Origin: Polaromonas sp.
Lineage (GTDB): Bacteria; Pseudomonadota; Gammaproteobacteria; Burkholderiales; Burkholderiaceae_C
Direction of reading: 5' to 3'
NCBI RefSeq assembly: GCF_043778355.1
Contig: NZ_JAYWHI010000031.1
Coordinates: forward strand, 60,202-124,201
DNA: 64,000 nucleotides
Part shown: positions 28,872 to 48,562 of the stretch, piece by piece
How positions within the stretch are numbered: position 1 is the first letter of the stretch
Layout: every line of letters starts with the position of its first letter
Program-made: the position numbers and the translations under genes
The notes under the pieces: model-generated
Database searches by the model: none
Seen by the model: the letters and a program-made list of their open reading frames with translations, nothing else
Told to the model about the DNA's origin: nothing

Positions 28872-29783
28872 TTAACCGGCAGGCGCAGCGCTTCGGTACC
28901 GCAGCGCTTCTTCTTCCAGCCAGGCGCGAAACAGCGCAAGCGCGGTGTTGTCCGACTTCTGCTCTGGATAAATGAAGTAATAACGGCGGTCACTGACGAA
29001 TTCATGTTTCACAAGTTCGACCAGCCGGCCCTGCTTCAAATCGTCCTCGATCAGAAAACGCGGAATCAGCGCCAGCCCCTGGCCATGGATCGCCGCTTCG
29101 GTGGTGATGGAAAACAGCTCCATGCGCGCGCCGGCCAGGTCGCCCTCGACCGTCAGCCCCAGCGAGGTGAACCACTGGCGCCAGGCATAAGGCCGGGTAC
29201 TCATCTGCAGCAAGGGCACGCCGTTCAGGTCGCCAGCCTTCAGCGAGCGCTTTGGTTTGACCAGCGCCGGGCTGCCGACGGCGACGATGCTTTCGTCCAT
29301 CAGGAAGCAGGACTCGGTGCCGGGCCAGCCGGCCTCCACCGCGCAAATGGCCGCATCGAGCGCGGTATCGGCAAACAAAAACGGCCGGGTGCGCGAAGAC
29401 AGATGCACCGTGATGTCGGGATGCCCTTGGTGAAAACGCGCCAGCCGCGGTACCAGCCAGCGCGCAGCAAAAGTCGGCACTACACCAAGTTCCAGCGCAC
29501 CGCCGGCGCCGCCACGCGCCATCATGTCCAGCGTGTCGCGCTCCACATCGTCGAGCCGGGAGCGCACATTGCGCGCATAACTGGCACCGGCCTCGGTCAG
29601 CAACACGCCGCGTTTGGTACGCCGGAACAGCTTGACGCTGAGAAAGTCCTCCAGACCCGCGATTTGCCGGCAGACCGCGCTTTGCGTCACCGAATGCTCC
29701 TCAGCGGCCTGGGTGAAGCTCTGATGGCGCGCGGCGGATTCAAACAAGGCCAATGCCGTGGTAGAAGGGATGTTGCGACGCAT
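28872..29783 (-). CDS. LysR family regulator (GcvA-like; GcdR position divergent from gcdH)
   Basis: FESAARHQSFTQAAEE..TQSAVCRQI HTH; divergent from glutaryl-CoA dehydrogenase. Confidence 0.88.
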   Translation of the reverse strand: MRRNIPSTTALALFESAARHQSFTQAAEEHSVTQSAVCRQIAGLEDFLSVKLFRRTKRGVLLTEAGASYARNVRSRLDDVERDTLDMMARGGAGGALELGVVPTFAARWLVPRLARFHQGHPDITVHLSSRTRPFLFADTALDAAICAVEAGWPGTESCFLMDESIVAVGSPALVKPKRSLKAGDLNGVPLLQMSTRPYAWRQWFTSLGLTVEGDLAGARMELFSITTEAAIHGQGLALIPRFLIEDDLKQGRLVELVKHEFVSDRRYYFIYPEQKSDNTALALFRAWLEEEALRYRSAAPAG

Positions 29784-29955
29784 GGCATCTCCTGGTGTCA
29801 GGTTTCGGAATTCGTTTTAAGCACAGATCTGTGACAAATCATGGTTTGCGCAGACGACCTGCACAACGTATGCTCAGGGCTGCCGCAAAAATAATTGCCC
29901 GCCCGAGTTGCGATTTTCGCACACAGAGCCCCTACCCCCACCTTTGGAGACCTTC

Positions 29956-31146
29956 ATGAGCACTTCCACCAAAAAAGCCAGCTTTCACTGGGCCGACCCG
30001 CTGCTGCTGGACCAGCAACTGAGCGACGACGAACGCATGGTGCGTGAATCGGCTGCCGCCTACTGCCAGGACAAACTGGCGCCGCGTGTGCTCGAAGCCT
30101 TCCGCCATGAAAAAACCGACACCGCGATTTTTCGCGAAATGGGTGAGCTCGGCCTGCTGGGCGCAACGATTCCCGAAGCCTACGGCGGCGCCGGCCTGAA
30201 CTACGTCTGTTACGGGCTGGTGGCGCGCGAGGTCGAACGGGTCGACTCCGGCTACCGCTCCATGATGAGTGTGCAGTCCTCGCTGGTGATGGTGCCGATC
30301 AACGAATTCGGCAACGAAGCGACCAAGCAAAAATACCTGCCGAAACTTGCCAGCGGCGAATGGATTGGCTGCTTCGGTCTGACCGAGCCGAATCACGGCT
30401 CCGACCCGGCCGGCATGCTGACGCGCGCGCGCAAGGTCGCCGGCGGTTATTCGCTGACCGGCAACAAGATGTGGATCACCAACAGCCCGATCGCTGACGT
30501 GTTTGTGGTCTGGGCCAAGGACGACGAAGGCGCGATCCGCGGCTTTGTGCTCGACAAGGGCAGCAAGGGCCTGAGCACGCCAGCCATTCACAGCAAGGTC
30601 GGCCTGCGCGCCTCGGTGACCGGCGAAATTGTCATGGACGGGGTGTTCTGCCCCGAAGAAAACGCCTTTCCCGAAGTGCGCGGTCTCAAAGGCCCGTTCA
30701 CCTGCCTGAACTCGGCCCGTTACGGCATCGCCTGGGGCGCGCTGGGCGCCGCCGAAGACTGCTTCGACAAGGCACGCCAGTACACCATGGACCGCAAGCA
30801 GTTCGGCCGCCCGCTGGCCGCCAACCAGTTGATCCAGAAAAAACTCGCCGACATGCAGACCGAAATCGCGCTGGGCCTGCAGGGCTGCCTGCGCCTGGGT
30901 CGCATGAAGGACGAAGGCACGGCAGCGGTCGAAATCACTTCGATCATGAAACGCAACTCCTGCGGCAAGGCGCTCGACATTGCACGCATGGCGCGTGACA
31001 TGCTGGGCGGCAACGGTATCAGCGACGAGTTTGGCGTGGCACGGCACCTGGTCAACCTGGAAGTCGTCAACACCTACGAAGGTACGCACGACGTGCACGC
31101 GCTGATCCTGGGCCGCGGCATCACAGGCATCTCGGCCTTCTCCTGA
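29956..31146 (+). CDS. gcdH: Glutaryl-CoA dehydrogenase
   Basis: [52 protein letters not shown]; start trimmed to ATG 29956 with GGAG RBS. Confidence 0.93.
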
Positions 31147-31150
31147 AGCC

Positions 31151-46587: not shown

Positions 46588-46625
46588 GACGCAGTTTTCC
46601 AGCCCTGGAAACCACTGATCACGCC

Positions 46626-47345
46626 ATGACCGCCAAACCTGCGAAAACCGCCAGCGCCGCCAAAACTGCGAAGGCCACGCGAAACCCCGCAGCCCGCCTC
46701 GCATCCGCCAAACGACCGGGCGTGCGCGAACAGGCGGCGCAGACCACGCGCGACAACATTCTGCGGGCCGCCACCAAGGTGTTTGCACGTTACGGCTACG
46801 AAGGCGGCAGCGTGGAGAAGATCTCCCAGTCGGCCAAGTCTTTCGACCGGATGATTTATTACTACTTCGGCAGCAAGGAAGGCCTGTTCATCGAAGTACT
46901 TGAAGACATGTACCGGCGCATGAACGACGCCGAGCTGGAGCTGACGCTGGACCTGGCGCAGCCGGTGGAGTCACTCAAGGACGTGATCAATTTTGTCGTG
47001 ACCTACTACAGCAAGAACCCTGAGTTCATCACGCTGCTCAACACCGAAAACCTGCACCGCGGCAAACATATCTCCAAGTCGGCGCGTGCCCGTGACTATT
47101 CGTCGCCAGCGATTGCCATCATCCGCCAGTTGCTCGAAAGCGGCGCGGCGCAGGGCGTGTTTCGCGCCGACGTGTCTGCACGCAATGTCTACCTGCTGAT
47201 TGCGGCCACCGGCTACTTCTACATTTCCAACCGCCACACGCTGTCGGCCTTCCTCGGCGAGGACCTGCAGACGCCGGAAGCGCTGGCGCAGTGGCAAGCC
47301 TTCATCATCAGCACCGTGCTGCGCACCGTGATGCTGAACCCCTGA
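46626..47345 (+). CDS. TetR family regulator (RutR/NicS-like)
   Basis: ILRAATKVFARYGYEG..MIYYYFGSKEGLF HTH; ENLHRG. Confidence 0.88.
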   Translation: MTAKPAKTASAAKTAKATRNPAARLASAKRPGVREQAAQTTRDNILRAATKVFARYGYEGGSVEKISQSAKSFDRMIYYYFGSKEGLFIEVLEDMYRRMNDAELELTLDLAQPVESLKDVINFVVTYYSKNPEFITLLNTENLHRGKHISKSARARDYSSPAIAIIRQLLESGAAQGVFRADVSARNVYLLIAATGYFYISNRHTLSAFLGEDLQTPEALAQWQAFIISTVLRTVMLNP

Positions 47346-47365
47346 CGTCTCACACGAAAGAAGCC

Positions 47366-48562
47366 ATGGCAGAAGCAGCAGCAAGCGGCAAGTCCGGCAA
47401 AGTTGTCATCACCAACATCGGCCTGCTCTTGTCGGGCGACGTCGACCGGCCGATTCTGGACGCCGACACCATTGTTGTGAACGACGGGCTGATCGTGGCC
47501 GTGGGCAAGGCCAAGGACTGCGACATGGCGCACGCCCAGACCACCATTGACGCACATCAGACCTGCGTCGCACCTGGCCTGATCGACAGCCATGTGCACC
47601 CGGTGTTTGGCGACTGGACACCACGGCAAAACCAGATCGGCTGGATCGATTCAACCATGCACGGCGGCGTGACCACCATGATTTCGGCCGGCGAGGTGCA
47701 CCTGCCTGGCCGGCCCAAGGACATCGTCGGCCTGAAGGCGCTGGCCATCACCGCCCAGCGCGCCTTCGACAACTTCAGGCCCGGCGGCGTGAAGGTGCTG
47801 GCCGGCGCGCCCATCATTGAAAAAGGCATGGTCGAGCAGGATTTCAAGGAACTGGCCGACGCGGGCGTGGGCTTGCTCGGTGAGGTCGGCCTGGGTTCCG
47901 TGAAAGCCGGCTATGAAGCCCAGCAAATGGTGGCCTGGGCGCGCAAATACGGCATCCAGAGCACCATCCACACGGGCGGCCCCTCGATTCCCGGCTCCGG
48001 CCTGATCGACAAGGATGTGGTGCTGGAGGCCGACGCCGACGTCATCGGCCACATCAACGGCGGGCACACCTCACTGTCGGAACAGCATGTTTGCGAGCTC
48101 TGCGAAAAATCCTCGCGCGCCATTGAAATCGTCCACAACGGCAACGAAAAAGTCGCGATTGCCGCTGCACAGGCCGCGCTGCAGCTTAAATGCCCGCACC
48201 GCGTGATCCTGGGCACCGACGGCCCGGCGGGATCGGGCGTGCAGCCGCTGGGCATGTTGCGCCTGATCTCATTGCTGTCCAGTCTGGGCAATATCCCGGC
48301 AGAGCTGGCCTTTTGTTTCGCCACCGGCAACACAGCACGCATCCGCAAGCTCAATTGCGGCCTGATCGAGGTCGGGCGCGACGCTGATTTTGTTTTCATG
48401 GACAAGGCACAGCACACGGCCGGTCGTGACCTGCTCGACAGCGTGCAGCGCGGCGACATCCCCGGCGTCGGTATGGTGATGATTGACGGCCTCGTGCGCT
48501 GCGGCCGCAGCCGCAACACGCCGCCAGCCACCACCATTCCCAGCGTGTCGGCGCAGGCCTGA
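47366..48562 (+). CDS. Enamidase-like amidohydrolase
   Basis: DSHVH, HGGVTTMISAG, PGRPKD, GEVGLG, HTGGPSIPGS, HINGG, SRNTPPA motifs closely follow Eubacterium barkeri enamidase as I recall it; start trimmed to ATG 47366. Confidence 0.85.
   Translation: MAEAAASGKSGKVVITNIGLLLSGDVDRPILDADTIVVNDGLIVAVGKAKDCDMAHAQTTIDAHQTCVAPGLIDSHVHPVFGDWTPRQNQIGWIDSTMHGGVTTMISAGEVHLPGRPKDIVGLKALAITAQRAFDNFRPGGVKVLAGAPIIEKGMVEQDFKELADAGVGLLGEVGLGSVKAGYEAQQMVAWARKYGIQSTIHTGGPSIPGSGLIDKDVVLEADADVIGHINGGHTSLSEQHVCELCEKSSRAIEIVHNGNEKVAIAAAQAALQLKCPHRVILGTDGPAGSGVQPLGMLRLISLLSSLGNIPAELAFCFATGNTARIRKLNCGLIEVGRDADFVFMDKAQHTAGRDLLDSVQRGDIPGVGMVMIDGLVRCGRSRNTPPATTIPSVSAQA

Follow-up and report, generated by a model that had tools for sequence, protein, structure and literature searches.

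Genes for a probable reductive nicotinate route beside a glutarate module in a Polaromonas contig

Introduction

Can the whole path from nicotinate to glutaryl-CoA be read from a single bacterial locus? The question was raised by positions 28872-48562 of a 64-kb stretch of a Polaromonas sp. contig (NZ_JAYWHI010000031.1; this whole stretch is called the window and has a G+C content of about 63%), for which an original prediction had announced a complete reductive nicotinate-to-glutaryl-CoA route. The biochemistry of such a route in Azorhizobium was reportedly worked out about 1990, in studies by Kitts dated 1989 and 1992. Our literature search found no paper assigning genes to the middle steps of the Azorhizobium route, and a search on nicotinate catabolism in Variovorax, Polaromonas and Acidovorax returned nothing relevant.

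We consider it likely, from homology and gene context, from which every enzyme assignment in the proposed route is drawn, that the locus serves the catabolism of nicotinate (or 6-hydroxynicotinate) by a scheme of the type "hydroxylate, then reduce, then hydrolyze", joined to a generic glutarate module. As had been proposed, its gene set fits the Azorhizobium caulinodans route through nicotinate, 6-hydroxynicotinate, tetrahydro-6-oxonicotinate, 2-formylglutarate, glutarate, glutaryl-CoA and crotonyl-CoA. The word "complete" had to be given up, since neither the locus nor the window holds an assigned gene for the decarboxylation of 2-formylglutarate or for the oxidation of glutarate semialdehyde. 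The cluster is of a known kind, and the element added to it is the neighboring gcdR-gcdH-CoA-transferase module.

Organization and Conservation of the Locus

Domains were called on the window proteins by profile searches with Pfam and NCBIfam and by sequence searches of the PDB, and together with the listing of open reading frames (ORFs) they resolve 28872-48562 into 16 contiguous genes. In the left part, gcdR lies on the minus strand, and gcdH and a family-III CoA-transferase gene run divergently from it on the plus strand. Convergent with this unit is a 13-kb minus-strand string (45359 to 32432), which reads hnr, UPF0280, two DUF1185 genes, a substrate-binding protein, a fused LivHM-type permease, two ATPases, nicA and nicB, with intergenic gaps of 0-80 nt and an overlap of 4 nt between nicA and nicB. 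Finally, fpr, tetR and ena are found on the plus strand, divergent from hnr across a 450-bp AT-rich spacer. All genes named in the original prediction were recovered with Pfam, NCBIfam or PDB evidence, and its limits were correct, 28872 being the stop of gcdR and 48562 that of the enamidase gene. Its description needed two amendments, the DUF1185 genes being two and the UPF0280 gene having been left off the list; and the nic part of the single locus it described is split into two divergent units, with a 450-bp control region between them.

With the fused permease as anchor, we collected 80 related loci (designated below by L numbers); the best permease matches were in a metagenome-assembled genome (98%) and in Polaromonas sp. 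A23 (92%). The layout ena-tetR-fpr / hnr-UPF0280-DUF1185-DUF1185-ABC-nicAB was found in about 49 of the 80 related Comamonadaceae loci, and also on one Comamonadaceae plasmid. A cluster of this kind had been reported by Shettigar 2012, following Alhapel 2006, as conserved in A. caulinodans ORS571 (AZC_2790-2804), Bradyrhizobium japonicum (blr3818-3830), R. palustris HaA2 and Bradyrhizobiaceae SG-6C, a strain which degrades nicotinate and 6-chloronicotinate, and was tied to the Azorhizobium route through glutarate (PMC3511419). Because the cluster is already published and recurs in about 49 of the 80 loci, the core from enamidase to nicB is not new, and the combination of NicAB with Hnr and enamidase, which had been noticed as a joining of aerobic and anaerobic parts, is indeed present here as an ordinary proteobacterial arrangement and not as a new assembly. 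The locus differs from the Azorhizobium-type cluster in its host, a betaproteobacterium (Comamonadaceae), in its fused permease and in the attached gcdR-gcdH-CoA-transferase genes, no such module being described there (PMC3511419); it has a TetR regulator where the alphaproteobacterial plasmid loci of Neorhizobium and Sagittula have a MarR.

Some related loci depart from the layout. On the plasmids of Neorhizobium (pNCHU2750a, L082) and Sagittula stellata E-37 (L083), hyuA/hyuB (hydantoinase/oxoprolinase; oxoprolinase-type lactam hydrolases) stand in the place of the enamidase gene, and in Sagittula a Mo/FAD-type hydroxylase (FAD, flavin adenine dinucleotide) replaces NicAB. Parapusillimonas granuli (L045, 77-14591) presents an amidase, a GntR, two DUF1185 genes, an enamidase gene (79% identical), an acyl-CoA ligase, an acyl-CoA dehydrogenase, the same ATP-binding cassette (ABC) system and a family-III CoA-transferase, without hnr, UPF0280 and nicAB; it may degrade an already reduced lactam acid.

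Hydroxylation and Import

The following genes would account for the upper pathway:

32432..36247, minus strand: nicB-like large subunit, with MoCoBD_1/2 and cytochrome c domains
36244..36735, minus strand: nicA-like small subunit, with Fer2 and Fer2_2 domains, i.e., two [2Fe-2S] clusters; its stop overlaps the nicB start
36778-37509, minus strand: LivF-like ABC ATPase (ABC_tran, BCA_ABC_TP_C)
37509-38297, minus strand: LivG-like ABC ATPase (ABC_tran, BCA_ABC_TP_C)
38294..40210, minus strand: fused LivH/LivM-type permease, with two BPD_transp_2 stretches
40284..41489, minus strand: periplasmic substrate-binding protein (Peripla_BP_6; PF13458, 241 bits), conserved in the cluster

The large subunit NicB has 1271 residues, with a hydrophobic segment at 843-868 and the motif RKRK just before it. 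Its residues 851-1258 match the tri-heme subunits of membrane dehydrogenases (E = 3e-95) and carry CxxCH motifs at 896, 1042 and 1173, so that the cytochrome c listed in the original prediction is present, in the form of a fused C-terminal domain of NicB. Over its full length NicB is 53% identical to a Neorhizobium gene labelled nicB by Prokka. NicA shows the motifs CGAC and CGYC, and no FAD-binding subunit of the hydroxylase was found in the locus. A small subunit with two [2Fe-2S] clusters and a molybdenum large subunit fused to three c-type heme sites make up the P. putida-type NicAB architecture, and we take this domain layout to be the NicAB design of P. putida that Jimenez described in 2008. 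It also fits the membrane-bound, cytochrome-c-linked hydroxylase that Kitts reportedly described in 1992. Electrons from the hydroxylation of nicotinate at C6 by a membrane-associated NicAB would pass through the enzyme's own tri-heme cytochrome c domain to the respiratory chain.

The likeness to the nic cluster of P. putida KT2440 (Jimenez 2008) extends to the paired [2Fe-2S] clusters of NicA, the molybdenum and tri-heme cytochrome c parts of NicB and the lack of a FAD subunit; it ends at 6-hydroxynicotinate, which would be reduced here, whereas it is oxidatively decarboxylated there. No FAD monooxygenase, extradiol dioxygenase or deformylase of the maleamate branch was matched among the scanned window proteins. 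These are the classes of NicC, NicX and NicD, respectively.

Import of the substrate, which would precede hydroxylation, is attributed to the Liv-type ABC system, and the ligand of its binding protein is presumed to be nicotinate or 6-hydroxynicotinate. The labels "branched-chain amino acid ABC transporter" and "amino acid synthesis family protein" that genes of such clusters receive are probably misleading. In many Variovorax-type loci the stretch from the second ABC ATPase gene to nicA is about 2 kb longer than in the window; in the one locus examined (L005:13381-15441) the extra DNA is a 686-codon ORF with a second Peripla_BP_6 domain.

Reduction and Ring Opening

The two steps that follow would be carried by four genes, two on each side of the divergent spacer:

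42820..43728, minus strand: UPF0280 protein, a remote ApbE-superfamily member (NCBIfam NF003322, 394 bits)
43746..45359, minus strand: hnr, 6-hydroxynicotinate reductase homologue, so called from the naming of its relatives
45814..46587, plus strand: fpr, ferredoxin-NADP+ reductase (FAD_binding_6 and NAD_binding_1)
47366..48562, plus strand: ena, enamidase (tetrahydro-6-oxonicotinate amidohydrolase), called from homology to PDB 2VUN and Pfam Amidohydro_1

For many among the 120 Hnr relatives listed (80-95% identity) the NCBI or JGI name is 6-hydroxynicotinate reductase, and Hnr is 59-66% identical to hnr-labelled genes on alphaproteobacterial plasmids. A comparison of 13 beta- and alphaproteobacterial sequences revealed seven invariant cysteines, including C58-x2-C61-x3-C65-x9-C75, a number sufficient for Fe-S clusters. 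A link to the anaerobic enzyme is given by strain SG-6C, whose Hnr homologue is 42% identical to the Hnr of E. barkeri (PMC3511419). The Hnr of the window, as an Fe-S flavoprotein, would reduce 6-hydroxynicotinate to 1,4,5,6-tetrahydro-6-oxonicotinate with electrons passed from NADPH through Fpr.

The gene following hnr offers a possible explanation of how Hnr is matured. JGI labels its relatives "ApbE superfamily ... UPF0280", the Pfam family being PF27030; the Pfam ApbE model gave no match to this protein. A profile built from eight UPF0280 members (A1) and searched against the PDB retrieved 2O34 (E = 1e-9), then four ApbE flavin mononucleotide (FMN) transferases at non-significant E = 0.45-1.6, in which the GGD and ADAxxT motifs fell into register, and a narrower profile (A2) lost these weak matches. 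When an AlphaFold model of the protein (predicted local distance difference test, pLDDT, of 66) was compared with known structures by Foldseek, 2O34 again ranked first and ranks 2-12 were nearly all ApbE/Ftp proteins (E = 0.06-0.9, template-modeling (TM) scores of 0.3-0.4). In the related loci the UPF0280 gene always comes after hnr and is gone where hnr is gone. Because the Hnr of E. barkeri reportedly carries a covalently bound flavin (work of Alhapel in 2006), we regard a role as dedicated flavin transferase for Hnr as reasonable but unproven; UPF0280 would attach the flavin and thereby mature the reductase.

Association with hnr is also seen for fpr, which adjoins it in 49 related loci, lies directly upstream of it in Sagittula and is inside the same cluster in Neorhizobium. 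Fpr probably supplies NADPH electrons, a part played in the anaerobe by reduced ferredoxin. The cluster has no separate gene for a ferredoxin, whose role may fall to the four-cysteine motif at the N-terminus of Hnr. The neighborhood, with fpr and an ApbE-like UPF0280 gene, agrees with an Hnr that carries a covalent flavin and depends on ferredoxin.

The enamidase aligns with the E. barkeri enzyme 2VUN (E = 9e-109; query residues 37-414 on residues 3-380 of 386) and is about 50% identical to this enzyme, which is specific for tetrahydro-6-oxonicotinate. The HxH metal-binding motif is aligned, "DSHVHPVFGDW" here and "DTHVHVSGGDY" in 2VUN. By sequence, the gene is a true orthologue of the E. barkeri enamidase and its activity is predicted: the ring would be opened to give 2-formylglutarate and ammonia. 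The locus thus resembles the E. barkeri cluster in its Hnr and full-length enamidase homologues and in the first three chemical steps. It differs in having a two-subunit NicAB with cytochrome c, against a selenium-containing four-subunit Ndh, in having Fpr, presumably for NADPH electrons, and in having the UPF0280 and DUF1185 genes.

The substrate deserves a separate discussion, since the true one could be another N-heterocyclic carboxylate, such as 6-hydroxynicotinate of plant or xenobiotic origin, or a different pyridine or lactam acid. The substrates of the molybdenum hydroxylase and of the binding protein are inferred only, which weighs against nicotinate, and related loci swap modules (the Mo/FAD hydroxylase and HyuAB of Sagittula; ena and DUF1185 without hnr or nicAB in Parapusillimonas); moreover, strain SG-6C feeds 6-chloronicotinate into the same cluster (PMC3511419). 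Yet the same cluster occurs in the nicotinate growers A. caulinodans and SG-6C (PMC3511419), and the identities of NicB to an annotated nicB and of the enamidase to an enzyme specific for tetrahydro-6-oxonicotinate point the same way. A substrate other than nicotinate seems to us improbable, and nicotinate is kept as the starting compound in what follows.

The Glutarate Module beside nicB

At the other end of the string, nicB faces the three genes of the module:

28872..29783, minus strand: gcdR, LysR-type regulator (Pfam HTH_1 and LysR_substrate), with a 172-bp spacer to the divergent gcdH
29956..31146, plus strand: gcdH, glutaryl-CoA dehydrogenase (decarboxylating type), with three acyl-CoA dehydrogenase domains
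31151..32362, plus strand: family-III CoA-transferase, gcoT-like (PF02515, 445 bits)

The identity of GcdH is clear from its matches: 742 bits (E = 1.4e-222) to the B. pseudomallei glutaryl-CoA dehydrogenase 3GNC and 555 bits (E = 1e-165) to human GCDH, with 586 bits for the best match not named glutaryl-CoA dehydrogenase (4W9U, "acyl-CoA dehydrogenase") and at most 245 bits for acyl-CoA oxidase 4 and the other named acyl-CoA dehydrogenases. The best NCBIfam family of the CoA-transferase is NF052585, succinate--glutarate CoA-transferase (569 bits, the next family reaching 282 bits), and we regard it as a probable succinyl-CoA:glutarate CoA-transferase. In P. putida, GcdR activates gcdH-gcoT upon glutarate, and nicotinate is listed among the sources of glutarate (PMC6667623). 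The modules of the window and of P. putida agree in gene order and orientation, both having a family-III CoA-transferase gene and a LysR gene that diverges from gcdH; that of the window differs in lying tail-to-tail with nicB. By analogy, glutarate would activate GcdR and turn on gcdH and the CoA-transferase gene, whose products would convert glutarate to glutaryl-CoA and then to crotonyl-CoA and CO2.

How often the module lies there was counted in the 48 loci that extend at least 900 bp past nicB. The gcd genes are on the nicB flank in five of them (L004, L056, L060, L050 and L068). Two Polaromonas loci, L004 (from Polaromonas sp. A23) and L056, have the convergent layout of the window. In Polaromonas sp. 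CT11-55 (L060, 17884-20116) the CoA-transferase gene and gcdR adjoin nicB, gcdH having been lost between them. In L050, nicB is followed by a second fpr and then by gcdR and gcdH-CoA-transferase in the opposite orientation. Finally, an uncultured betaproteobacterium (L068, 13468-21451) carries nicA-nicB-gcdH-CoA-transferase-aldehyde dehydrogenase on one strand, with a gap of 26 nt between nicB and gcdH; its aldehyde dehydrogenase has 477 residues, and this is the only locus with such a gene attached. In L068 the matches to the binding protein and to the CoA-transferase each come in two pieces, for which assembly frameshifts may be the reason. A different neighbor is seen in a Polaromonas metagenome-assembled genome (L047:17781-20408), where nicB is followed by a quinolinate-phosphoribosyltransferase-like gene (nadC family), that is, an NAD-biosynthesis gene beside a nicotinate catabolic cluster, with a 590-codon ORF next to it.

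These data have to be weighed against the possibility that the nic cluster is real and its position by gcdR-gcdH-CoA-transferase incidental, the module being a general glutarate, lysine and tryptophan unit that is a chance neighbor in the Polaromonas lineage. The same three-gene unit handles lysine-derived glutarate in P. putida (PMC6667623). In the window it is convergent with nicB and has its own LysR regulator, and is therefore a separate, generic unit; only five of the 48 informative loci have it. However, the gcd-nic link looks functional and not accidental, because the junction takes three different architectures, one of them a co-directional nicAB-gcdH-CoA-transferase-aldehyde-dehydrogenase string. 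By our own rough estimate, a given gene would lie within 3 kb of another by chance in about 0.1% of 5-Mb genomes, and the biochemical Azorhizobium route reportedly ends in exactly gcd-type enzymes (work of Kitts in 1992). An incidental position is to be kept in mind as the less likely explanation. Our own reading is that a general glutarate module serves as the lower pathway and has in a few lineages been drawn next to the nic genes. The original prediction that the locus converges on gcdR-gcdH-CoA transferase is upheld in that the module lies beside nicB, in three arrangements across the loci, and is qualified in that this is an exception and the unit a generic one.

Several points weigh against the assignment of the joined route, beginning with the 43 of the 48 loci whose nicB flank holds no gcd genes and with the convergent, separately regulated module just described. 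Hnr has no Pfam, NCBIfam or PDB match, those libraries seeming to have no model for its family; its AlphaFold2 model from 19 close homologues was unusable (pLDDT 32); and its assignment comes from the names of its relatives. The similarity of UPF0280 to ApbE proteins is suggestive and sub-significant throughout (E = 0.06-1.6). The 569 bits of the CoA-transferase are under the equivalog cut-off of NF052585, which is 750. The locus sequence was found in DNA runs, with traces in one soil metatranscriptome, which shows presence and not expression. Finally, a tblastn search with the aldehyde dehydrogenase of L068 found none in the 64-kb window, and no recognizable decarboxylase was seen among the scanned window proteins.

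From 2-Formylglutarate to Glutarate

The last of these points concerns the step from the enamidase product to glutarate, which the original prediction had left unassigned: the gap is real, as neither a recognizable decarboxylase nor an aldehyde dehydrogenase is encoded in any part of the window. The conversion of 2-formylglutarate to glutarate reportedly takes a decarboxylation and an aldehyde oxidation (Kitts, in 1992), and would here proceed through glutarate semialdehyde.

One way to close the gap would be to replace the lower route altogether. In the fermentation of E. barkeri, the enamidase product goes through 2-(hydroxymethyl)glutarate, 2-methyleneglutarate, methylitaconate and dimethylmalate to propionate and pyruvate, and the window does hold a B12-dependent mutase gene (21944-25237), 7 kb upstream of gcdR. 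We rejected this candidate for a 2-methyleneglutarate mutase, its IcmF architecture (B12-binding, MeaB GTPase and methylmalonyl-CoA-mutase domains) being that of a CoA-ester mutase, and the conserved cluster of the related loci surveyed does not include it. Moreover, no serine-dehydratase-like, PrpF-like, aconitase-like or isocitrate-lyase-like gene is found in the window. The lower branch of E. barkeri (Hgd, Hmd, Mgm, Mii, DmdAB, Dml) has no counterpart here, and the earlier statement that hydroxymethylglutarate dehydrogenase and methyleneglutarate mutase are missing holds for the whole 64-kb window and for all the domain types concerned (Hgd, Hmd, 2-methyleneglutarate mutase, methylitaconate isomerase, dimethylmalate dehydratase and lyase). 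Gene content effectively refutes this branch, which we hold to be scarcely credible, and the route through glutarate is retained.

The comparison of loci suggests candidates for the unassigned steps on that route, namely the DUF1185 pair, a protein of the fumarylacetoacetate-hydrolase (FAH) family and an aldehyde dehydrogenase. The FAH-family gene (394 residues; PF01557, 27.5 bits, cut-off 23.9) follows nicB on the same strand in 21 Variovorax/Xenophilus-type loci (for example L015:19910-21091, L016:19035-20216 and L005:20036-21223), which probably represent a single evolutionary event; a tblastn search with the L015 protein found no such gene in the window. Since there are beta-keto-acid decarboxylases in the FAH superfamily, and 2-formylglutarate belongs to the beta-aldehydo acids, this protein is a possible 2-formylglutarate decarboxylase. 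The DUF1185 genes of the window are, in turn:

41534..42118, minus strand: DUF1185/PF06684 paralogue 2 (PF06684, 234 bits, cut-off 27)
42156..42797, minus strand: DUF1185/PF06684 paralogue 1 (PF06684, 218 bits, cut-off 27)

In a pairwise comparison they are 39% identical to each other. Paralogue 2 matches PDB 2QTP (SPO0826 from Ruegeria pomeroyi) with E = 5e-83, and there is homology to 3BYQ (E = 9e-26). The DUF1185 structures, 2QTP included, have a hexameric fold like that of chorismate mutase, with a conserved His/Arg/Glu cavity and no assigned function; the 2QTP paper inferred "amino-acid metabolism" from an adjoining Liv-type transporter and never mentioned nicotinate. The SPO0826 gene adjoins a Liv-type ABC system and may belong to an hnr-type cluster in R. 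pomeroyi.

The DUF1185 pair is the most constant unexplained part of the cluster. The run hnr-UPF0280-DUF1185-DUF1185 is contiguous in the alphaproteobacterial loci L082 and L083 even with HyuA/HyuB in the place of the enamidase, and in Parapusillimonas granuli the pair travels with enamidase, acyl-CoA ligase and acyl-CoA dehydrogenase genes without hnr. Relatives that are 35-37% identical lead gene strings on plasmids of Rhizobium sp. BT03 (pRspBT03c; L085, 7004-12234) and Aquabacterium olei (pTB101; L086, 7001-12184), which consist of a single DUF1185 gene, an alpha/beta hydrolase, a flavin reductase, an LLM oxygenase, an aldehyde dehydrogenase and a NIPSNAP gene. PGAP names the DUF1185 gene of these two strings "amino acid synthesis family protein". 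Their composition is presumably that of the trigonelline (tgn) cluster of A. baylyi, in which the dehydrogenase is said to be "assisted by a conserved hypothetical protein" (attributed to Perchat, 2018). The DUF1185 protein TgnF of A. baylyi is reported to stimulate succinate-semialdehyde dehydrogenase/oxidation (PMC7913881, citing Perchat 2018). Both systems have DUF1185 beside the hydrolase that opens a pyridine-3-carboxylate-derived intermediate, on the way to a 2-formyl-dicarboxylate and an omega-semialdehyde (PMC7913881). They differ in that two DUF1185 paralogues and no adjoining aldehyde dehydrogenase are found here, and in that the ring would be opened hydrolytically after reduction here, by an oxygenase there.

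Because both pathways lead from a pyridine-3-carboxylate to a 2-formyl-dicarboxylate and, with loss of CO2, to an omega-semialdehyde, we place the DUF1185 pair at the aldehyde stage, for which it is the favored candidate; an aldehyde dehydrogenase gene would then lie elsewhere in the genome. As a tentative proposal, rather doubtful when taken as a whole, the pair would be the missing enzyme or obligate helper after ring opening, acting in the decarboxylation or tautomerization of 2-formylglutarate or in the hand-over of glutarate semialdehyde, as TgnF may act on 2-formylsuccinate or succinate semialdehyde in trigonelline catabolism, with UPF0280 as the flavin transferase of Hnr.

Regulation of the nic Units

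Two further features lie around the start of the divergent units:

45403..45557, no strand: candidate operator region in the hnr/fpr divergent spacer, with four CTACATT/AATGTAG half-sites
46626..47345, plus strand: TetR-family regulator (TetR_C_29, from Pfam), conserved between fpr and the enamidase gene

The heptamer CTACATT or its complement occurs six times in the 64 kb, against 1.6 expected, and four of the six copies are within 45403-45557, including the palindrome CTACATT-N7-AATGTAG at 45438-45458. In 40 of 49 related loci, too, the hnr/fpr spacer contains the heptamer, which is nearly absent from the rest of the approximately 22 kb examined. By their sequence and position, these repeats are a good candidate operator for the TetR protein of the cluster. 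A TetR-type regulator, NicS, reportedly exists in P. putida KT2440 as well. Both units, hnr-UPF0280-DUF1185-DUF1185-ABC-nicAB and fpr-tetR-ena, would respond to TetR at the CTACATT repeats of their shared spacer. No inverted repeats were found in the gcdR/gcdH spacer or in the gap between the CoA-transferase gene and nicB, and a scan of the locus for promoters and terminators gave sites no more numerous than in shuffled sequence.

Neighboring Genes

The flanks of the nic cluster code for unrelated functions: DUF6352, TauE, an IcmF-type mutase, PPK2, a TRAP transporter, an exonuclease, helicases, a short-chain dehydrogenase, a second Liv system, peptide ABC components, an amidase and peptidases. 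Directly beside gcdR are a DUF6352 gene (27076-28170, minus strand) and a 212-codon ORF without family match (28226-28864, plus strand). A PPK2 polyphosphate kinase gene followed by the IcmF-type fused B12 mutase gene (21080-25237) has no relation to the nic cluster, but might be taken in error for the E. barkeri mutase. At the left end of the window, a separate minus-strand cluster (957-9108) carries an amidase, an MlrC-like M81 peptidase and a peptide ABC transporter made of a fused double ATPase, a permease and a family-5 binding protein. The region 52656-58308, to the right, codes for a short-chain dehydrogenase and then for another full Liv-type ABC system, with two ATPases, a binding protein and two permeases that are separate; it is 4 kb past the enamidase gene, with genes for an exonuclease and a DEAD-box helicase between.

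Significance

Lower-pathway genes gather at the nicB end of the cluster in various lineages: gcdH and the CoA-transferase gene in three arrangements, an aldehyde dehydrogenase gene in one locus and the FAH-family candidate in 21 loci. Their presence there constitutes genomic support for the route outside rhizobia. In addition, the cluster would make two widespread families of unknown function, DUF1185 and UPF0280, experimentally approachable; if the role proposed for DUF1185 is true, it would be the first defined chemistry for a family of hundreds of "amino acid synthesis" proteins.

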